From: Nitrospinota bacterium
Lineage (GTDB): Bacteria > Nitrospinota > Nitrospinia > Nitrospinales > VA-1
Length of the DNA: 29,292 nucleotides
Reading direction: 5' to 3'
Assembly: GCA_022567815.1 (NCBI GenBank)
Contig: JADFGI010000001.1
Span: forward strand, 1-29,292
The position numbers were made by a program, and so were the translations under genes. Below are positions 11,429-22,825 of the stretch, one piece after another (positions within the stretch are counted from its first letter, which is position 1; every line of letters starts with the position of its first letter). The notes under the pieces were generated by a model. The model did no database searches and was not told where the DNA came from. It saw only the letters and a list, made by a program, of their open reading frames with translations.

Positions 11429-12796
11429 TTAGCCGATGATCCGCATGATATCGTTGTAAAAAGCTAAGACCATCAGACTGAGCAACATGAAAATACCGAC
11501 CTGTTGCGCCCGTTCGCGGCTTCTTTCACTCAAAGGCTTTCCTTTGACCATCTCAATGAGGAAAAAGAATATGTGCCCTCCGTCCAGGACCGGTATTGGC
11601 AAAAGATTCAGGAGGCCCAGATTGATGCTCAACAAGGCCGTTATCCGGATGAGTTCGTTGAACCCCTGTTCAGCTCGGTCGCCAAAAACTTGGAAGATCA
11701 AAATAGGACCGCCAATGCTGTCAGCCGGAATCGACCCCACGACCATTTTTTTGATACTGACCGCGATCAGGTAAATCAACCGTCCTGTTTCCTCGAGGGA
11801 GCGCTCGATGGCGCCAAAAACCCCATAGCTTTCCTCAACCATCTCACCGCTCATGCCAATGCCGATGACTCCGATTTCCACTTTTTTGCCTTGCTCATCC
11901 TCAATCTCCTTGGGTTCCGGAGTCAAAGCTATGATGATTTCCTGACCTTCCCGTAAAATACGAAAGTCCAGTTCCTTACCGGGTTGGTCCACCGCCGCGG
12001 GTTTGAGATCGCCCCAGCCGAAAATAGGTTTGCCATCGACTTTAAGAAGTTGGTCGCCAACCTGCAATCCTGCCCGGTCGGCGGCGGAGCCTTCCTTGAC
12101 ATAAGTTATGTTTTGTACCAGCGGTGTGATGCCGATGAGACCGACGGTTTTTTTGTCACCGAAAAGGTCTGTGGTTTCTTCTGAAACGGGGGTGATAGCA
12201 AAATTTAACAGGGAGGATCCTCTTTCGACCTTGAAATCGAGTGATTTCCCCGGAGAGGCGTGGACAATTTTTTGCAATTGATCCCAAAATTTGACTTGTT
12301 TGCCGTCGATTTCGACAATCTTATCGCCGATTTGCAGGCCAGCCGCCAGAGCGGGAGATTCTGGTCTGATGTTTCCCGTGACCAGGCCCAGGGTTTGTAC
12401 TCCCACAAGGTAAACCACCCAATAAATAGCAATCGCAAACAGGATGTTGAATAACGGACCCGCAAAGGCGATGGCCAGACGGTGCAGGACCGGGGCGGCG
12501 GCAAACGAACCCTCCTGATTCCGGGAATCGGCTTCATAATCTTCTCCCTTCATTTTCACGTATCCGCCAAGCGGGATGGCGGAAAGCAGGAATTCTGTTC
12601 CTCCCGATTTGTAACTGATAATTTTTGGTCCAAAGCCAAGGGAAAACTTTTCCACCACCACTCCAAATTTGCGGGCGGCTAAAAAATGCCCCAATTCATG
12701 GACAAAAATCAAGGCCGCCAGGCCGCCCAGAAAGGCCAGCATTTTGAACCCGAATTGAAATATGGCATCCGGGCTGATAAATGATAATTCAAACAT
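11429..12796 (-). CDS. rseP: RIP metalloprotease RseP (site-2 protease, two PDZ domains)
   Basis: HELGH zinc motif, FSLGFGP, AGPLFN, NLLPIPVLDGGH; two PDZ-like repeats (SPALAAGLQIGD, SAADRAGLQVGD). Confidence 0.96.
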   Translation of the reverse strand: MFELSFISPDAIFQFGFKMLAFLGGLAALIFVHELGHFLAARKFGVVVEKFSLGFGPKIISYKSGGTEFLLSAIPLGGYVKMKGEDYEADSRNQEGSFAAAPVLHRLAIAFAGPLFNILFAIAIYWVVYLVGVQTLGLVTGNIRPESPALAAGLQIGDKIVEIDGKQVKFWDQLQKIVHASPGKSLDFKVERGSSLLNFAITPVSEETTDLFGDKKTVGLIGITPLVQNITYVKEGSAADRAGLQVGDQLLKVDGKPIFGWGDLKPAAVDQPGKELDFRILREGQEIIIALTPEPKEIEDEQGKKVEIGVIGIGMSGEMVEESYGVFGAIERSLEETGRLIYLIAVSIKKMVVGSIPADSIGGPILIFQVFGDRAEQGFNELIRITALLSINLGLLNLLPIPVLDGGHIFFFLIEMVKGKPLSERSRERAQQVGIFMLLSLMVLAFYNDIMRIIG

Positions 12797-12920: not shown

Positions 12921-13021
12921 TTATTCTCACAAGCGGGTTTTATACCCCGTGTCTTGACACGGCTTTAATAATGAAAACTTTTGTCGGGCACCCCGTCTGC
13001 TTGCGGCAGAGTCGTTTATTT
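12921..13021 (-). mobile_element. ~100-bp two-hairpin non-autonomous element, family P (MITE/PATE-like)
   Basis: Colinear with 14314-14415 along its whole length; hairpin CCGTGTC-TT-GACACGG; overlaps the lolA stop codon. Confidence 0.65.
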
Positions 13022-13669
13022 TTTCGAGGTATAGTCCAGCAACTCGACGCCTTCGGGGACTTCGAACTGGAAGGTAGATTCCGGAATTTTCTCATTTATC
13101 CGGATATCGCTGAAATTGATTTCTGTTTTGTTTCCCAATTTATCATACACGGTTGATCCAACGATTTGGTAGCTTTTACTATTCGCCACCAGCACCAACC
13201 GGTCGACGGCGTTGTCTTCCTCTTTGGGAATGAGAACGACGGTGATCAGGCCTTTTTCCTTTGATACTTTTATGACGTCGAAGGAATCTGTTAATTTTCC
13301 CTTACCGGCAAGAAACAGGGCCGGGGTATTGGAGGAATAAATACTTTCTACGGGAACCTTGGTCACTTGCCCCTCGTCGGGGATATATAACCAGAGAATC
13401 TTTTCGTTGCTCACCAGCACCTGAGGCTCCGGGGCGTTGTAAACCCACTTCATTTTCCCCGGTTTTTTGATTTGCACCTTGCCCCTGGCTTCCAGGGTTT
13501 GGTTCATGGTTTTAACATACGATTTTTGTACGAACCGGGCAGTGATTGTTTTAACGGACTCGTATTGCTTTTGAATGGCGTCAAGCGCCTCTTGTTCTTC
13601 ACTGGCGGCGGCGTTCAGGGTACCGCCTGCAAAAATCAGAGTGATTAGGCAAGCAAGTATTTTATTCAT
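13016..13669 (-). CDS. lolA: Outer-membrane lipoprotein carrier protein LolA family
   Basis: Signal peptide; TITARFVQKS, IKKPGKMKWVY..EPQVLVSNEKILWLY..QV, and C-terminal FQFEVPEGVELLD. Confidence 0.88.
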   Translation of the reverse strand: MNKILACLITLIFAGGTLNAAASEEQEALDAIQKQYESVKTITARFVQKSYVKTMNQTLEARGKVQIKKPGKMKWVYNAPEPQVLVSNEKILWLYIPDEGQVTKVPVESIYSSNTPALFLAGKGKLTDSFDVIKVSKEKGLITVVLIPKEEDNAVDRLVLVANSKSYQIVGSTVYDKLGNKTEINFSDIRINEKIPESTFQFEVPEGVELLDYTSKK

Positions 13670-13693: not shown

Positions 13694-14314
13694 TCAATTT
13701 TTCTTTTGCGTGACTTTTCGTTCCGATACTGTGAGGCGGTTTTCAACCATCAGTTGAATGGCCCTCGGATAAATAATGTGTTCCTGTTCCAAAATGCGCT
13801 TGGACAATGCCTCCTCATCGTCCGAATCGTATACGGGGACGACGCTCTGAAGAATAATCGGTCCGCTGTCAACCCCCTCATCGACAAAATGCACCGTGCA
13901 TCCCGAAAACTTGACGCCATGTTCCAGGGCCTGCTGTTGTGGGTGTAATCCTGGAAAAGCGGGAAGCAGTGAAGGGTGAATGTTAATGATTTTTCCCGCA
14001 AAACTATTTATGAAGGCTTTCCCAAGAATCCGCATGAACCCGGAGAGGCAAACGAGGTCAACGGCTTCGGCCCGCAACAGGTCTTTCAATGCCCGGTCAA
14101 ATTCCTCCTTGCCTGAATAAGATTTGGGGTCCAGGAAGACGGGTTTTATCCCGTGATTTTTGGCCCGTTCAAGGGCAAAAGCTTCCTTGGCGTTACTGAT
14201 GACGATGGGAATTTCGGCGGCGAGAGTTCCTTGTTCAATTTGGTCGATAATGGCTTGCAGGTTTGTTCCTTGTCCCGAAACCAGCACCGCGAGTTTGAAT
14301 TTCTTCGATCCCAT
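13694..14314 (-). CDS. purN: Phosphoribosylglycinamide formyltransferase
   Basis: AVLVSGQGTNLQAI, LSGFMRIL, NIHPSLLPAFPG, GCTVHFVDEGVDSGPII. Confidence 0.97.
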   Translation of the reverse strand: MGSKKFKLAVLVSGQGTNLQAIIDQIEQGTLAAEIPIVISNAKEAFALERAKNHGIKPVFLDPKSYSGKEEFDRALKDLLRAEAVDLVCLSGFMRILGKAFINSFAGKIINIHPSLLPAFPGLHPQQQALEHGVKFSGCTVHFVDEGVDSGPIILQSVVPVYDSDDEEALSKRILEQEHIIYPRAIQLMVENRLTVSERKVTQKKN

Positions 14315-15520: not shown

Positions 15521-15960
15521 AACATTGATTTTTTTAAATTATTTTTATTGGCAAAAAAATTCTCTCTTCTATTTGAAGATTTTAAACTGAGACACTACCA
15601 ATGATTCGACTTGATTGGGTGGGAACGTTTTCCGTCTAAAACCCGGATTTTTTTCAGAATCGGGAATAAACCTGTCAATTAATCTATCTTAATATTGGAA
15701 TTTGAATGAAAGTTTGAATTCCATCCCTTTTTGCGATCCGTCGGCCTATTTTAAACTCCCTGGCCGGCGGATTTTCTTTATTATTTTTCCTGCCGATTTT
15801 CAAGCGTTTTCCTCCCTGGTCAGCCTCATTTACAAAAATCATTTGGTATATAAATCAATATTTTATTGGGATATAAAGGCTTGCGCTGTTAGAGTTATTG
15901 TATTCCCAAAGAAAAAAATCTGTTCACCGAATGATGAAAACTTTGTCCCATGAGGTTTTT

Positions 15961-17307
15961 ATGAATAAGCAACGATATTTGATTTCCCTTCTCCTGTGTT
16001 TTTTTCTGGCACAACCCTTATCGGCTTTTGCGGACCAAAATGCCGATTTGTTGGCCGCTGGCAATCGGGGAGATTATAAAGAGGTCAAGGAGTTGCTGGC
16101 CAATGGAGCTGACCTGGAAACCCGGACGGCCAAAGGCAGTACCGTTCTCATTGTTGCTGTAGCCGCCAAGCATGATCGGATCGCCCACCTTCTGCTGAAA
16201 AAGGGAGCCAGGGTCGATGCTAAAAACCGGTATGACGATACCGCTCTCATCCTGGCCTCAACATTGGGCGATCCCGTTCTCGTTAAAACGCTTATTGACC
16301 GCGGGGCGGATGTCAATGCGCGGAATATGTATGGGTGGAGTCCCCTGTCCAGGGCCGTAAGGTATGGTCATGAAAAAACCGTGAAGCTTTTGATTTCCCG
16401 CGGAGCGGACCTGGAGGCGGCCATCAAGGGAGGCGCCACGCCCTTGATGATTGCTATTAGTGAACATCATTTCGGGGTCGTGCGTGAATTGGTTCGGCGA
16501 AATGCCGATGTCAACATCCATAACTGGAAAGGGGTGACTCCTTTGCAACTGGCGGTTTTCGCCGGTCGCTCCGATATCATAAAACTTCTGCTGGATAATG
16601 GGGCGGCTAAGGATGCCGTCAATAAATTCGGAGATACTGTTTTGTTTCTGGCGACGGAACAAGGGTCGCCGGACTGCGTAAAAGTTCTTTTGACAGCCGG
16701 GGCCAAGGTAAATGTAACAAACAAAAAAGGGTGGACGGCCCTCGCAAGAGCCGTCAAGTTTGGCCGTACCGAAGTCGGCAGGATTTTGATCTCCAATGGC
16801 GCTGATGTGGATGCAAAAAGTAAATCCGGAACCACCCCGCTGATGATAGCGGCGGAACGGGGAAATGTCGATTTTGTCCGAATTCTGCTCGAACACAATG
16901 CCGACCTGCATGCCAGGAGCAGAAACGGAGCCAATGCTTTAATGAGCGCGGCGGCGGGAGGCAACGCGGAGACGGTCCAGACGTTGATTGATGCGGGCGC
17001 GAAAATTAATAAAACGATGGCAAACGGTTCCACTGCCTTGATGATTGCCGCGGAACGGGGAAGGCGGGAGGCAGTCAATACTCTTCTAAAAAATGGAGCA
17101 GATGTTCACGCCAAAAGCAAAAAAGGCTGGACGCCTTTAATGGGCGCGGTTGCCGGGGGACACCCGGACCTTACCCGATTGTTTTTGCGCCAGGGGGTGG
17201 ACCCGGCGGCAAAAAGCAATAATGGCTGGACGGCTCTAAAAATCGCTTCCCAGCTCAAGCGAAAAGAAATGGCAACGATTCTAAAACAAGCCGGAGTCCG
17301 TGAATAA
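15961..17307 (+). CDS. Secreted ankyrin-repeat protein (13 repeats)
   Basis: Thirteen ~33-aa G.T(P/A)L..A...G....V..LL..GAD repeats counted. Signal peptide MNKQRYLISLLLCFFLAQPLSAFA with a GAGG RBS; the ORF track starts earlier, at 15898. Confidence 0.92.
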   Translation: MNKQRYLISLLLCFFLAQPLSAFADQNADLLAAGNRGDYKEVKELLANGADLETRTAKGSTVLIVAVAAKHDRIAHLLLKKGARVDAKNRYDDTALILASTLGDPVLVKTLIDRGADVNARNMYGWSPLSRAVRYGHEKTVKLLISRGADLEAAIKGGATPLMIAISEHHFGVVRELVRRNADVNIHNWKGVTPLQLAVFAGRSDIIKLLLDNGAAKDAVNKFGDTVLFLATEQGSPDCVKVLLTAGAKVNVTNKKGWTALARAVKFGRTEVGRILISNGADVDAKSKSGTTPLMIAAERGNVDFVRILLEHNADLHARSRNGANALMSAAAGGNAETVQTLIDAGAKINKTMANGSTALMIAAERGRREAVNTLLKNGADVHAKSKKGWTPLMGAVAGGHPDLTRLFLRQGVDPAAKSNNGWTALKIASQLKRKEMATILKQAGVRE

Positions 17308-17309
17308 CT

Positions 17310-17496
17310 CCCCGCCACGCGGGGAGGAAAAGCCTGCTACGCAGGAGGGCTGACGCTCACTTCGTTCACGAGCCCTTAAAAGCCATAATGCATAAGACTA
17401 CGTTAACATTGGGTCCAGCGTCACGCTGGCCCCGCCACGCGGGGAGGAAAAGCCTGCTACGCAGGAGGGCTGACGTTCGCTACGCTCACGAGCCCC
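17310..17496. repeat. Family A repeat, 120-bp unit plus partial tandem copy
   Basis: CCCCGCCACGCGGGGAGGAAAAGCCTGCTACGCAGGAGGGCTGACG occurs at 17310 and again at 17430. Confidence 0.9.
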
Positions 17497-17705: not shown

Positions 17706-17808
17706 TAATTTTCTCTTTCTTGCCAAAAGAATGAAAAATAAATAAAACCTCCTTATGAAACTTACCTCCTGCGTAGCGGAATTTTCCCTCCAGCCGTTTT
17801 CAGGGCCT

Positions 17809-17932
17809 CGCGTAGCGTCAGGCCCAAGTTTCCTCCCCCGTGTAACGGGGCGCGTAGCGTCAGGCTCAAGCTTCCTCCCCGTGTAACGGGGCGCGTAGCG
17901 TCAGGCTCAAGCTTCCTCCCCGTGTAACGGGG
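17809..17932. repeat. Three tandem 41-42 bp direct repeats, no spacers
   Basis: CGCGTAGCGTCAGGCTCAAGCTTCCTCCCCGTGTAACGGGG starts at 17851 and 17892 (identical), with a variant at 17809; each unit contains the inverted family A hairpin. Confidence 0.92.
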
Positions 17933-17944
17933 CGCGTGGCGGGG

Positions 17945-20140
17945 TCAGGCTGGAAGGTTTTCCTGGATTTTTTTGAGGAGTCCGATGTTTTGCGTATGTC
18001 CCGTCCGGTGGGCTTTGATATGGCCGCGGATGGGCCTTCCCAGCAGATAAAAATCACCCAGAATATCCAGGATTTTATGGCGGGCAAACTCGTTCTCAAA
18101 CCGGAGTTTGGTGTTTAAAACTTTTTTGTCTCCCAGCAGAATGAAGTTATCCAGCTTCCCGCCGGAGGCAAACCCCATTTTAGTCAATTGGGCCACATCT
18201 TCCATGAAGCCGAAAGTCCGCGCCGGAGCGATCTCATTTTTGAAACTTGATTCGCCTTTGAACACATAGGTGTGATCCTGAGTGCCAATGGGCTCAGGAT
18301 ATTTCATGTAGTAACTGACGGTGAATGTCTCGGCGGGTTCTATGGAAATCACCGGACCGTTTTCATCCTTGGGGCCAAACGTATAAGTTTTGTCGATGAC
18401 GATTTCATCGTAAATTCCATCCTGTTCCTCGAATTCCCCATCCTCTATAAGAGTGCAGAAGTCTTTTGCCGAGCCGTCCATCACCGGAGCTTCGTCCCCT
18501 ATTTTGATGAGCAGGTTGGTGATCCGGTACATATGCAAAACCGCCATGATATGTTCAATGGTAGCGACGGATGCCAGGCCTTTTTTCAGGCAGGTTGAGT
18601 AATCCGTGGATTGAACATTTTCCAACCGCGCGGGGATGGTCTTGCCAGAGGATATGTCGCCGAAAATGATGCCGCTACCCGGAGGCAGGGGTTGGAGAAT
18701 GAGGCCGGTTTTAATGCCGGAATGGAGCCCGCTTCCGCAAAGCACCACACTTCGCTTGAGAGTTCTTTGTAACGGGAGAGGGGAAGGTTGTTTGCCATTG
18801 GATTCTGGAAGTCGAATGGCATGACGCTTCAGTTTTTCCTGGAATAGTTTTTTATCGGTTTTCAGAGCCTTGCAGGTTTTTTCCAGATCCCATCTGTTTT
18901 TTCTCAGGTGATGGATGATGAAGCCCTTCTCCCAGGTTAGCTCCGCTTCCTGGAAGGTTTCAGAAGGACCGGACTCATCAGGGTTGACCGTTCTCCTGGA
19001 GTTTTGAATTTCCTGAGGCAGTTCCTGCAGGGAAATTTTCCCGCAGGTGGAACCGGTTATCAGAATTTTATCCAGGACCGACCGAAGTTCTTTAACGTTT
19101 TCGGGCCAGTCGTAACGGCATAAAGCGGCCAGCGCATCTTCTTCGATGACGGGGACGGGAAACTTCCCCTTTTCCGCGCATTCCTCAAAATAGTCTTTGA
19201 CCATGATGGGAATATTGTGGGAATAATCGCGCAGAGGAGGGATCTCCAGGAGGGTGTTATTAAATAAACCCAACAACTCAGGATTAAATTGCTCCCCGGC
19301 GGTCAGCACTTTCAGGTTTCTGGATGATGAGATCATTAATCGGGCGGGGAGAAATTCGCTTTCCGATTTGCCTTTTAATCCCTGGGCCAGTTTTTCTTGA
19401 AGATCTTTGTCCAGGGATTCAATGTTACTCAGATAAACCACGGAACCCTGGCTTCCTGGCGACTGCTTCGCGGATTTTTTTGATCGGCTGGATTTTCTTT
19501 TCGCTTTGGAGAAAAGATGGGATTGAATATCATGGGATTGCCGAACCGCGCAATTCAGCTTGATAAAGGGATGGTCGCTCTGGTGACTTCGCCGATGAAT
19601 GCAGTGCGCGATGAACTCTTTTCCCGTCCCTTTTTCCCCAAGCAGAAAAATGGGCTTATTGTTCTGCGACGCCTGTTGGGTGGCTTTTTTTACCTCCACC
19701 ATCATCTCGAAGCAAAGCGGCAGGTCTTCCTGGTTGAGTAAATTGCCTTCCAGGGTTCTCTGGTTTTTCTTTTTTTCCTTGAAAACGGATTCGACCGATT
19801 CAGTCAGTTGATCGAGGGAAAACGGTTTTTCGATAAAGTCGAATGCGCCAAGTTTTGTCGCCTGGACGGCGGTGTCGATGGTGCCGTGCCCCGACATAAT
19901 CAACACTTCAATTTCGGGATGGTAAGTCTTGACCGTTTTTAACACCTCGATTCCGTCCATTCCCGGGAGCCAGATATCCAGCAGTACCAGATCGGGTGGG
20001 TCGGATTGAATCATTTTCAAAGCCCCCAGCCCATCCTCTGCCACGGAAACCTCGTAGCCTTCGTCGCTGAGGATATCCTTGAGCGAACTGACTATATTTT
20101 TTTCATCGTCTACAATTAAAACCCGTTCGTTTGCCAACAT
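17945..20140 (-). CDS. lpxC: Fusion: receiver domain + degenerate sigma54 AAA+ + Fis-like HTH + UDP-3-O-acyl-N-acetylglucosamine deacetylase (LpxC)
   Basis: One continuous ORF. REC: VDDE..LVLLDIWLPG..SGHG..IEKP. Walker A GEKGTGKE. LpxC at 17945-18772: LQRTLKRSVVLCGSGLHSG, TIEH, EIAPARTFGF, HKILDILGD, GH. Start at ATG 20140 (GGAGG RBS) or TTG 20215. Confidence 0.9.
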   Translation of the reverse strand: MLANERVLIVDDEKNIVSSLKDILSDEGYEVSVAEDGLGALKMIQSDPPDLVLLDIWLPGMDGIEVLKTVKTYHPEIEVLIMSGHGTIDTAVQATKLGAFDFIEKPFSLDQLTESVESVFKEKKKNQRTLEGNLLNQEDLPLCFEMMVEVKKATQQASQNNKPIFLLGEKGTGKEFIAHCIHRRSHQSDHPFIKLNCAVRQSHDIQSHLFSKAKRKSSRSKKSAKQSPGSQGSVVYLSNIESLDKDLQEKLAQGLKGKSESEFLPARLMISSSRNLKVLTAGEQFNPELLGLFNNTLLEIPPLRDYSHNIPIMVKDYFEECAEKGKFPVPVIEEDALAALCRYDWPENVKELRSVLDKILITGSTCGKISLQELPQEIQNSRRTVNPDESGPSETFQEAELTWEKGFIIHHLRKNRWDLEKTCKALKTDKKLFQEKLKRHAIRLPESNGKQPSPLPLQRTLKRSVVLCGSGLHSGIKTGLILQPLPPGSGIIFGDISSGKTIPARLENVQSTDYSTCLKKGLASVATIEHIMAVLHMYRITNLLIKIGDEAPVMDGSAKDFCTLIEDGEFEEQDGIYDEIVIDKTYTFGPKDENGPVISIEPAETFTVSYYMKYPEPIGTQDHTYVFKGESSFKNEIAPARTFGFMEDVAQLTKMGFASGGKLDNFILLGDKKVLNTKLRFENEFARHKILDILGDFYLLGRPIRGHIKAHRTGHTQNIGLLKKIQENLPA

Positions 20141-20211
20141 TTCCTCCAAATATGAGGTATGAAATGATTCGAGGTGTTCTGTATTCCCTATCGATTGCCA
20201 AATGATGCGAT

Positions 20212-20847
20212 TCAAAAACGCTTGATGAAATCCAGGTAATAGATTTTATCTCCGGCGTTGATGAAATTGTTCTCGTACTTTGATTTGGGAAGATCTCCCC
20301 GGTTCCCCCGGAAAACTCCCGGCCCGATCTTATTTTTTAATTGCGCCTGCGCTTCAAAAAATTCCAGGATTTCCAAGGCGTAGGGTTCGCTGTCCGTTGC
20401 CAAATGCACTTCCCCGCCAGGAATCAATTTGCTCGTCACAAGATCCACAAAAGGCGGTTTGATCAATCTGCGTTTGTAATGGCGTTTCTTTGGCCAAGGG
20501 TCCGGGAAATTGATGTATATTTTGTCCAGACTTTCATCCTTGAACAGCAGGGAAACCTTTTCGCGGGCATCTCCATAAACGATACGGATGTTTTTTATCT
20601 GCAGTTTATTGACGCGGGTGATGACCTTGCGAATGCCCTTGTGATAAAAATCCATGCCCACAAAATTGCTATCCGGTTCGCGTGCCGCCATGTCGATGAG
20701 AAACTTTCCGTTGCCAAATCCGACATCCAGTTGCAATGAATTCCCGTTCTCGAAAACCGCGCTCCAATCGGGGAGGGCCTCGGTGTCCAGGAAAAACGGG
20801 CTTTCCTGGGCGATTTCATCAAAAGAAATTAAGGGCTTGGAGGCCAT
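20212..20847 (-). CDS. trmB: tRNA (guanine-N7)-methyltransferase
   Basis: LDVGFGNGKFL, NFPDPWPKKRHYKRRL, VHLATDSEPY. Confidence 0.94.
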   Translation of the reverse strand: MASKPLISFDEIAQESPFFLDTEALPDWSAVFENGNSLQLDVGFGNGKFLIDMAAREPDSNFVGMDFYHKGIRKVITRVNKLQIKNIRIVYGDAREKVSLLFKDESLDKIYINFPDPWPKKRHYKRRLIKPPFVDLVTSKLIPGGEVHLATDSEPYALEILEFFEAQAQLKNKIGPGVFRGNRGDLPKSKYENNFINAGDKIYYLDFIKRF

Positions 20848-20855
20848 ATTAAATT

Positions 20856-21341
20856 TTATCCTTCATTGCTTCCACGATTTTCATGAATGGTGATTATTTT
20901 CAAGACTTCAAATTCTTTATGCCGTCCGGGAAGAGAAATCACCACTTCATCCCCGGCTTGTTTTCCCAACAGCGACCTGCCGACAGGCGAGGCGGTTGAA
21001 ATTTTTCCTTCATCAGGATTGACCTCCTCCGGAAACACCAAGTGATATTGGGTTTCATCGCCCGTGTTTAGATCCTTTAAGAACAGGGTGCTTCCCAGGC
21101 CGGACCGGTCTCGTGGAATACGGTCAACATTCAAAGCCATGACATCGCTGATTCTTTTTTGCAATTGGGATAACCGCGTCTCAAGAAACATTTGCCGTTC
21201 CTTGGCCGCCTTGAATTCGGCGTTTTCGCTCAAATCACCGTGCTCCATGGCGGTTTTCAACGCTTTAGGGATATCGACTTTTAATTCGACTTTGGCGTTT
21301 TCAAGTTCCTTATCAAGTTTATCCAGGATGGGAAGTCGCAT
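20856..21341 (-). CDS. greA: GreA/GreB family transcription elongation factor
   Basis: HGDLSENAEF acidic tip; coiled coil; KISTASPVGRSLLGKQAGD. Confidence 0.92.
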   Translation of the reverse strand: MRLPILDKLDKELENAKVELKVDIPKALKTAMEHGDLSENAEFKAAKERQMFLETRLSQLQKRISDVMALNVDRIPRDRSGLGSTLFLKDLNTGDETQYHLVFPEEVNPDEGKISTASPVGRSLLGKQAGDEVVISLPGRHKEFEVLKIITIHENRGSNEG

Positions 21342-21518
21342 TGGTGAATTCTCCGCTTAACAAAATCTGATTCTGGTGAAACAACGTCCGGGTAAAAAAT
21401 TCAAAATGAAATTTTGCTTCCCGGTCAAAAGGAGACGCATACCTTGAGGCCGGACTGGGGCAAAACTATCTCAATCACTATAGGCTGGACAGCAATTGTT
21501 TTCAAGTTTCCCTTTGCG

Positions 21519-21888: not shown

Positions 21889-21964
21889 AAAGGATATCGG
21901 TCACTTATTGAATTTATTTTATTTGCGTCCAATACAGGCGCTACCTGGAGATTTGGGCCTTAAT

Positions 21965-22825
21965 ATGATGAGAGACGAAATTTTAAAAATTCTTACGGAA
22001 AAAAGCGATTTGCCCCCGCTTCCGGAAATTCTTTTGAAGTTGCAAAACCTTATCAACGACCCTGAAAGTGAACTGGAAGAGATTGCAAGACTTATAGAGA
22101 CAGAACCTGTTTTGTCGGGAAGGCTCATCAAACTGGCCAACAGTGTTTTATATGGGGGGGGACGGGAAAAAACCGAGGATCTTTCCGGCACGGTAATGCG
22201 CCTGGGCGTAAAAATGATTCTGGACCTGGCCTACACTCTTCAACTGACCAATATGTTCAACCGGTTCAAGTCCTTCGACCAATACAAGTTCTGGATGCAT
22301 TCAATGGCCGTCGCCTGTTTAACCCAGACTTTGAGCCAAAAGGTGAATCTCCCGCAGGAGGAAAAGGAGGAAAGCTATGTTTGCGGTTTGATGCATGATC
22401 TTGGCATCGTAGTTTTTGAGTATTTGATTCCTGATGAATATTTCGCGTTCGTGAAATCCATCGGTCCTGAAGAGGCCTCTTTGGAAACCCTTGAACTGGA
22501 AAAATTCGGCATCGCCCACCCGGAACTGGGCGCAAGATTCATTCGCCAAAATTGGCCAATTTCACCCATCGTCATTACTGCCGTGGAGAATCATTTTCAT
22601 CCGCTGTCCGTGAATGGCGCCGGGCTGAATGTCTCTCAATTGGTTGGTATCGCCAACCAGGTGGCTATCAACGAGGGGATCACCAACGGAATCGGCATCC
22701 CGCCTGAAATTCCTCTGGAGGGCAAAATTTATGAAAAATTGGGAATTTCTCCAGAAGAGTTGGAAGAAATCGTTGAGACAACTGTGGAAGGCCTGGACAA
22801 CACTGAACTGCTAATGAAGGCCTGA
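21965..22825 (+). CDS. HDOD domain signalling protein
   Basis: LPPLP, EPVLSGRLIKLANS, FWMHSMAVA, GLMHDLG, HPELGA..W..V..H. Start at ATG 21965; the ORF track uses TTG 21908. Confidence 0.9.
   Translation: MMRDEILKILTEKSDLPPLPEILLKLQNLINDPESELEEIARLIETEPVLSGRLIKLANSVLYGGGREKTEDLSGTVMRLGVKMILDLAYTLQLTNMFNRFKSFDQYKFWMHSMAVACLTQTLSQKVNLPQEEKEESYVCGLMHDLGIVVFEYLIPDEYFAFVKSIGPEEASLETLELEKFGIAHPELGARFIRQNWPISPIVITAVENHFHPLSVNGAGLNVSQLVGIANQVAINEGITNGIGIPPEIPLEGKIYEKLGISPEELEEIVETTVEGLDNTELLMKA

Follow-up and report, generated by a model that had tools for sequence, protein, structure and literature searches.

The single LpxC found in the genome of a Nitrospinota bacterium (GenBank assembly GCA_022567815.1, 84.6% complete) is encoded as the last domain of a protein that begins with a phospho-acceptor receiver. 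Its gene lies on the minus strand (17945–20140) of the 29,292-nucleotide stretch of contig JADFGI010000001.1 that we analysed (hereafter, the window). We propose, with a confidence of about 65%, that this protein is a response regulator descended from NtrX/PlrR, with the cell's sole LpxC as its output domain, and that LpxC is under two-component control in this organism. LpxC catalyses the committed step to lipid A, is the control point of lipopolysaccharide (LPS) synthesis and has long been pursued as an antibiotic target. What is known of its regulation, mostly from work on Proteobacteria, is control by proteolysis or transcription; in Escherichia coli, LpxC is controlled by FtsH/LapB(YciM) proteolysis.

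A receiver joined to LpxC in one reading frame

The fusion occupies a single open reading frame (ORF) of 756 codons on the minus strand (17945–20215), which begins with a TTG adjoining the stop codon of trmB. The true start is probably the ATG at 20140 (or the TTG at 20137), just 3′ of a GGAGG at 20143–20147. Starting at the ATG gives a protein of 731 amino acids (aa; stop codon at 17945–17947), and database homologues measure 726–739 aa at 96–97% coverage and begin at the MLxxER position of the fusion protein. The in-frame 5′ extension from the TTG (20141–20215) is probably an untranslated leader. Residue numbers given here follow the 756-codon frame, in which D80 is D55 of the 731-aa protein. 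From the N terminus, the protein comprises a receiver (REC), a degenerate AAA+ domain, its lid, a helix-turn-helix (HTH) remnant and LpxC.

The receiver (19793–20122; Pfam Response_reg, residues 32–141, E = 7e-33) retains the acidic pair D36/D37 (within 20099–20113), the phospho-acceptor D80 in LLDIW (19976–19978), S108 and K130 followed by proline, and its motifs are retained in 37 of 38 long forms of the fusion. The LpxC domain (17963–18772; Pfam LpxC, residues 483–751, E = 5e-80) scores 269.3 bits against PF03331 (cut-off 27), covering profile positions 1–267 of 268, and 229.9 bits against TIGR00325, above the cut-off of 187.25. It carries the motifs TIEH (residues 552–555, 18551–18562), ARTFGF (665–670, 18206–18223), HKILD (713–717, 18065–18079), ILGD and GH (739–740, 17996–18007). 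In a residue-by-residue alignment to Pseudomonas aeruginosa LpxC, the zinc and catalytic residues are retained as E554/H555, T667, H713/K714/D717, D721 and H740 (the reference residues, in E. coli numbering, being zinc ligands His79, His238 and Asp242 and catalytic Glu78, His265, Thr191, Lys239 and Asp246), and they are invariant across 38 long and 46 short forms. Judged by its score and its catalytic residues, the C-terminal domain is a bona fide LpxC. It stops around 5 residues past the fold, compared with around 27 more in P. aeruginosa, and has no E. coli-type C-terminal tail.

The linker that joins the HTH remnant to LpxC (18773–18814) is modelled by AlphaFold2 with a predicted local distance difference test (pLDDT) score below 50. 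Between KLKRH and KRS there is no in-frame ATG, GTG or TTG, and the first such codons are a GTG GTG pair within the LpxC fold; a separate LpxC translated from an internal start is therefore ruled out. The junction itself was examined in metagenome data. A 3,691-nucleotide contig from one run (X1) covers 17903–20900 with 11 substitutions and no gaps, and contigs from two others cross the junction gap-free (X2, 18283–19251; X3, 18614–18819). All indels relative to the metagenome contigs lie 3′ of the fusion stop codon, inside a repeat. Because contigs from three independent runs span it without gaps, the junction is no assembly artefact. One metatranscriptome run yielded identical contigs at 18186–18340 and 18544–18798, for which DNA carry-over is possible and from which we conclude nothing about expression. 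The source genome also contains lpxD, lpxB and lpxK. Public annotation labels the fusion as either LpxC or NtrX.

These results bear out much of an earlier note on this DNA, written from the sequence alone. It had described an uninterrupted ORF joining REC, AAA+, HTH and LpxC, and a linker without an in-frame ATG, GTG or TTG before LQRTLK. It had also described a receiver that keeps its acidic pocket, phospho-Asp (LLDIW), Ser and Lys-Pro, and an LpxC that keeps TIEH, HKILD and GH, and we located every one of these.

The arrangement extends well beyond the window. LpxC occurs exactly once in 108 of 120 Nitrospinota species genomes, and in 56 of the 57 of high quality, and it is fused wherever the contig permits. 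The LpxC frames of the phylum are 660–809 aa long unless a contig end cuts them, closed chromosomes included; two families are exceptions, with frames of 514–516 aa and 460–466 aa that correspond to REC-HTH-LpxC and REC-LpxC. Clustered at 50%, public proteins include more than 40 clusters that combine a receiver with LpxC, in four architectures: REC-AAA-lid-HTH-LpxC, REC-AAA-lid-LpxC, REC-HTH-LpxC and REC-LpxC. By name or record title, these fusions come from Nitrospinota, Thermodesulfobacteriota, 'Deltaproteobacteria' metagenome-assembled genomes (MAGs), Binatia, Syntrophorhabdaceae, Thermodesulfovibrionia, Zixibacteria, one Spirochaetota genome and others. The nearest LpxC relatives outside the phylum, at 56–64% identity, are all fused to receivers. 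Among our 80 species-representative loci, nearly all are labelled as MAGs and none as a named culture. Taken together, the fusion is real, ancient and widespread.

The degenerate middle of the protein

The part of the protein between receiver and LpxC resembles a sigma54 activator that has lost its working parts. The degenerate sigma54-type AAA+ core (19232–19705; Pfam Sigma54_activat, residues 171–307, E = 9e-19) keeps its Walker A motif, GEKGTGKE (19616–19639). The loop that would hold GAFTGA now reads LFSKAKRKSS (19487–19516), the Walker B remnant is VYLSNIESL (19412–19438), with SN in place of DE, and the arginine-finger remnant is FNPELLGLF (19262–19288), in which both finger positions are lost and are now N and L. 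The sensor-II motif PPLR (19223–19240) stands just upstream of the lid (18983–19222; AAA_lid_14, residues 332–411, PF25601 E = 1.8e-13), which keeps the YDWPENVKELRS lid motif (YxWPxNVKEL, 19079–19114). Against PF00158, the AAA+ domain of the fusion scores 71.8 bits, compared with 225–253 bits for ten canonical paralogues in the same genome, which also contains rpoN. GAFTGA is absent from all 38 long forms, and the Walker B glutamate is missing in every fusion examined; in long forms, conservation reaches 90% or more at P-loop residues G168, E169, G171, G173 and K174. The AAA+ domain is thus predicted to be unable to activate sigma54 or to hydrolyse ATP; it may still bind nucleotide, but would not be the switch.

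The Fis-type HTH remnant (WEKGFIIHHLRKNRWDLEKTCKALKTDKKLFQEKLKRHAI, 18815–18934) can be aligned to the HTH of NtrX. Its turn glycine is replaced, and no match to HTH_8 (PF02954) was found in the fusion at E ≤ 0.1. Distant long forms have a more canonical Fis-type HTH and weak HTH_8 matches. The fusion lacks three defining features of sigma54 activators: GAFTGA, the Walker B motif with the arginine fingers, and the HTH.

Selection acts unevenly along the gene. In a comparison with the closest congener, the ratio of nonsynonymous to synonymous substitution rates (dN/dS) is lowest in the receiver (0.04) and comes to 0.05 in LpxC, 0.06 in the HTH remnant, 0.15 in the lid and 0.21 in the AAA+ core; values for AAA+ and lid range from 0.08 to 0.30 (AAA+ core, 0.08–0.28). 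Across the order, receiver and LpxC are 76–94% identical, and identity in the AAA+ domain falls to 41–55%. The HTH has been deleted in families f2 and f3, in part of f4 and in f7, and the AAA+ domain in f5, in f7 and in short forms with an LpxC 77–79% identical to the window copy. Because AAA+ and HTH have been deleted many times independently while REC-LpxC persists, the conserved unit is receiver plus LpxC, and the activator-derived scaffold is dispensable, although in long forms purifying selection still acts on it and its nucleotide-binding pocket is retained.

In a tree of LpxC domains (FastTree, with E. coli as the single outgroup and no support values, and compatible with either a long or a short first fusion), long and short forms are interspersed. 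Three LpxC representatives that appear 'free' fall within groups of short forms, and their gene calls may be truncated. Given that the derived defects are common to all long forms, with GAFTGA, the Walker B glutamate and the arginine fingers gone, one fusion origin followed by repeated loss of AAA+ and HTH is the economical reading. The earlier note had rightly reported these losses, with the replacements given above, and the degeneracy of the HTH. Its suggestion that the activator scaffold serves as the switch is not supported, given the repeated deletion of AAA+ and HTH from proteins that retain REC-LpxC.

A candidate kinase and the proposed switch

As the earlier note had remarked, no cognate kinase lies in the window; a candidate lies elsewhere in the genome. 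At loci encoding REC-HTH-LpxC (L002) and REC-LpxC (L006), the end of a histidine kinase gene meets or overlaps the start of the fusion. The orthologue in the source genome (C375:11946-14156, running off the contig end) is 48–57% identical to the kinases that abut fusions, compared with 31% for the next paralogue, and consists of NtrY_N, HAMP, PAS, HisKA and HATPase domains with intact H-box and G-boxes. A DUF4390 gene (PF14334, E = 9.8e-26), whose PlrP-like, periplasmic product has a signal-like N terminus, overlaps the start of the kinase gene and is kept in both gene orders, with the kinase beside the fusion or apart from it. DUF4390 is the family of PlrP, which recent genetic work identified as the third component in a subset of NtrYX-family systems (PMC13001219).

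The pairing of kinase and fusion recurs across lineages. The kinase abuts the fusion in all 11 genomes of the basal families f5, f7 and f9 in which both genes are on one contig, and a Zixibacteria REC-LpxC gene has an NtrY_N kinase 10 nucleotides upstream. In other phyla, a full-length NtrY-like kinase abuts 33 of 69 fused loci, with 2 more truncated by a contig end. By contrast, no NtrY-like kinase abuts unfused lpxC at any of 11 loci, and at 8 of these the upstream sequence extends for 1.6 kb or more. Within the phylum, 104 of 120 genomes have a single orthologue of the kinase, and no response regulator follows the separated kinase in relatives. We therefore regard the C375 kinase as a strong candidate partner, and as the orphan survivor of an NtrY-type kinase that was ancestrally encoded, with its DUF4390 partner, directly upstream of the fusion. 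Two-component control of lipid A synthesis, which the earlier note had put forward, remains the best reading of the locus, given the adjoining NtrY-type kinases; what lacks support is its assignment of the switch to the scaffold.

We envisage that the NtrY-type C375 kinase would phosphorylate D80, and that the phosphorylation state of the receiver would set the level of LpxC activity in the cell. NtrC-family receivers use their α4-β5-α5 face and an extended α5 helix, and a long α5 helix is present in both of our AlphaFold2 models (residues 109–134 in the long form and 109–127 in the short form). In the route that we favour, phosphorylation would change how receivers dimerise through this face and the α5 helix, which every form keeps, and the change would in turn alter the activity, assembly or turnover of LpxC; the AAA+/HTH middle would be a decaying, dispensable remnant.

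Several observations weigh against this proposal. Because the HTH remnant is about as constrained as the receiver within the genus, and conservation of the P-loop, sensor-II and lid motifs is 90% or higher, the AAA+/HTH middle apparently still does something in long forms. Neither AlphaFold2 model, of the long or of the short form, has a fixed or confident interdomain arrangement: in the long form (mean pLDDT 79.8, predicted template modelling score (pTM) 0.56) the domains are confident and the linkers disordered, and in the 447-aa short form (mean pLDDT 85.0, pTM 0.66) a 44-residue linker has a pLDDT of around 30. A packed inhibitory interface like that of CheB is therefore unsupported by the models. 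In 20 of 20 genomes of families f1–f4, the kinase lies 90 kb–1.35 Mb from the fusion, and because the two genes are unlinked in the source order, their pairing there rests on orthology and on the order of the genes in the ancestor. Finally, proteolytic control of LpxC may coexist with a receiver switch, because the genome encodes a tetratricopeptide repeat (TPR) protein that carries a zinc ribbon weakly matching the LapB type.

The conservation of the middle is compatible with a broader reading, which we offer tentatively and consider rather less probable than its opposite: envelope and LPS homeostasis would be the ancestral job of the NtrYX family, and the hydrolysis-dead AAA+ domain of the long forms, with its P-loop, sensor II and lid, would be a nucleotide sensor that feeds energy or second-messenger state into the switch.

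The same conservation bears on the possibility that the protein is bifunctional, its N-terminal half being an NtrX-like, sigma54-independent DNA-binding regulator to which LpxC was fused only for co-expression or stoichiometry, leaving the enzyme unaffected by the receiver. NtrX, too, is without GAFTGA and works as a repressor, purifying selection on the HTH remnant is strong in the genus, the HTH of distant long forms looks canonical, and AlphaFold2 depicts the domains as beads on flexible linkers. However, many lineages have independently deleted HTH and AAA+ and still have REC-LpxC intact and adjoining the kinase; the window copy has neither a recognisable HTH_8 domain nor the turn glycine; and co-expression alone would not keep the phospho-acceptor pocket in 108 short forms. 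On balance, we consider bifunctionality of this kind improbable.

A further account, to which we also give a low probability, is that the receiver controls the abundance of LpxC, with phosphorylation exposing the protein to FtsH, Lon or ClpXP, or hiding it from them, in place of the E. coli C-terminal degron. LpxC is under proteolysis in E. coli and probably under that of Lon in some alphaproteobacteria (PMC12444477). The fused LpxC has no C-terminal tail to serve this purpose, and the AlphaFold2 models have disordered loops and linkers rich in Lys, Ser and Arg. The genome also offers a LapB-like TPR/zinc-ribbon candidate, a 498-aa protein that is the only one of its kind and whose C-terminal ribbon scores 21 bits, below the cut-off. 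Against this, the best match in the genome to PF18073 is RadA, not LapB; we rejected this family as a LapB marker, as it also matches in Gram-positive controls. RadA and the LapB-like candidate lie on contigs C332 (L045:229-1605) and C130 (L130:1365-2861). Control of abundance is a variant of the receiver switch proposed here and does not contradict it.

Far less likely is that the receiver is a structural relic in the source order, receiving no phosphate since its separation from the kinase and leaving LpxC constitutive. The distance between kinase and fusion in all f1–f4 genomes would fit such a history. So would a 695-aa protein from a Logan assembly (P0140), a pseudo-receiver variant whose acidic pair (VEND), phospho-Asp (LVSLW) and Lys (EQP) are gone, from which it follows that pseudo-receiver forms can evolve. 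The window copy, however, keeps all of its phospho-acceptor residues in the most constrained domain of the protein, and the orphan kinase is single and intact in those 104 of 120 genomes, with its H-box and G-boxes and no adjoining regulator. An erroneous merger of two adjacent genes, in assembly or gene calling, is ruled out by the three independent runs that cross the junction gap-free, by the same frame in more than 100 independently assembled genomes, closed chromosomes included, and by the linker without a start codon.

Genomic context, related systems and implications

Upstream of the fusion, on the same strand, lie trmB (20212–20847) and greA (20856–21341), both identified by Pfam; greA, trmB and the fusion probably form one transcription unit, and a promoter-like site is found at 21505–21477. 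The order greA-trmB-fusion-purN-lolA-rseP is shared by 15 relatives. In the window, purN (13694–14314), lolA (13016–13669) and rseP (11429–12796) are all on the minus strand, and these three genes are the downstream neighbours of the fusion throughout the phylum. In families f1–f4, greA-trmB take the place of the kinase upstream of the fusion, and the ancestral order was mutS-DUF4390-kinase-fusion-purN-lolA-rseP. At one locus on a 3.9-Mb contig (P0130), which encodes a 710-aa long form, a LapA-domain gene lies directly upstream of mutS-DUF4390-kinase-fusion and is another LPS-assembly gene beside the module. Divergent from greA in the window is a gene for an HDOD-domain protein (21908–22825, plus strand), which is syntenic with greA-trmB-fusion in most of the f1–f4 relatives examined; on unrelated metagenome contigs (L016 and L017), a REC-LpxC gene likewise has an HDOD gene around 700 bp away.

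The region between the fusion and purN has features of its own. Four tandem 41-nucleotide units, each with a CCCCGTGTAACGGGG hairpin, begin just 3′ of the fusion (17794–17958), and the last of them overlaps its final codons and stop. In contigs of the three metagenome runs, this segment has a word-depth of around 900–2300, compared with around 10 for the gene, and many loose ends; given this depth, it is a short multi-copy element. Two 66-nucleotide direct repeats, 94% identical and 120 nucleotides apart (17310–17495), follow between the fusion and an ankyrin gene, with their arms inverted relative to the 41-nucleotide units. The ankyrin-repeat protein is encoded on the plus strand (15898–17307) by a 469-aa ORF with a hydrophobic, signal-like segment near its N terminus. 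Only the source genome and a single congener (L026) have this gene between fusion and purN. A further congener (L037) has too little room for it between the two, and no ankyrin match turned up in the flanking sequences of the other relatives examined.

Among known systems, the closest to the fusion is NtrY/NtrX, including PlrP-PlrS-PlrR. NtrX is the best match of the N-terminal 455 residues both in the PDB (Brucella NtrX, 5m7n) and in NCBIfam, and shares with the fusion the order of REC, GAFTGA-less AAA+ and Fis-type HTH. The candidate kinase likewise has NtrY_N, HAMP and PAS domains and follows an overlapping DUF4390 gene, as in Bordetella PlrSR with its DUF4390 protein PlrP. Unlike NtrX, however, the fusion carries a whole LpxC at its C terminus, and it has lost the Walker B motif and arginine fingers that Brucella NtrX keeps. 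Its lineages are Nitrospinota and other non-proteobacterial phyla, and its link to LpxC is physical, not transcriptional. Membership of the NtrX equivalog family (NF051870) was rejected, with the fusion scoring 257.6 bits against a cut-off of 600; no protein of the source genome reaches that cut-off, and canonical NtrC-type paralogues score higher than the fusion (312–385 bits).

Other comparisons concern the layout of the protein. CheB methylesterase, the GGDEF proteins PleD and WspR and the HD-GYP protein RpfG also place a receiver at the N terminus, a flexible linker after it and an enzyme at the C terminus, and adjoin a histidine kinase. By analogy with them, the fusion most likely works like a response regulator with enzymatic output. 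It differs from all of them in its output, a biosynthetic zinc amidase that belongs to an essential pathway and has no second copy in the cell. Atypical enhancer-binding proteins (NtrX, VpsR, TyrR, HupR, PhhR and HsfA) similarly have a Sigma54_activat AAA+ domain without GAFTGA and, in some, non-consensus Walker motifs, but they remain transcription factors, whereas the fusion has lost every determinant of hydrolysis, its HTH has decayed and its relatives delete the AAA+ domain. In LpxC-FabZ (NF009667), LpxC is again a module of a longer polypeptide, and the model matches the LpxC part of the fusion at 204 bits, below its 465-bit cut-off; that protein joins two lipid-synthesis enzymes through the C terminus of LpxC, whereas the fusion has a signalling module at the N terminus.

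Known control of LpxC, by FtsH/LapB(YciM), Lon, NtrYX, ChvGI or DVU2934, acts through a degron and adaptor or through a promoter, whereas the fusion has a sensor domain within the enzyme polypeptide. Loss of NtrYX in Rhodobacter sphaeroides raises lpxC mRNA around nine-fold, and Caulobacter NtrYX also inhibits lpxC transcription (PMC7240162, PMC12444477); in Desulfovibrio vulgaris, lpxC is the one target of the regulator DVU2934 (PMC3333781). In the literature that we searched, which excluded subscription journals, we found no paper on a receiver-LpxC fusion or on LpxC as the output of a receiver, and the words 'fusion', 'fused', 'receiver' and 'response regulator' are absent from a 2025 review of lipid A regulation. 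New for this window are the split gene order, the C375 orphan kinase, the read-level check of the junction, the per-domain dN/dS values, the conserved P-loop and the control with unfused lpxC.

If our proposal is correct, it would add a third mode of LpxC control, a direct switch from signal to enzyme with an identifiable sensor kinase, and would give the pleiotropic NtrYX/PlrSR family a concrete biochemical output. Such an output may explain the effects of NtrYX/PlrSR on the envelope and on lpxC in alphaproteobacteria. The series from REC-AAA+-HTH-LpxC to REC-LpxC would then be a natural example of a transcription factor whittled down to the phospho-switch of an enzyme.

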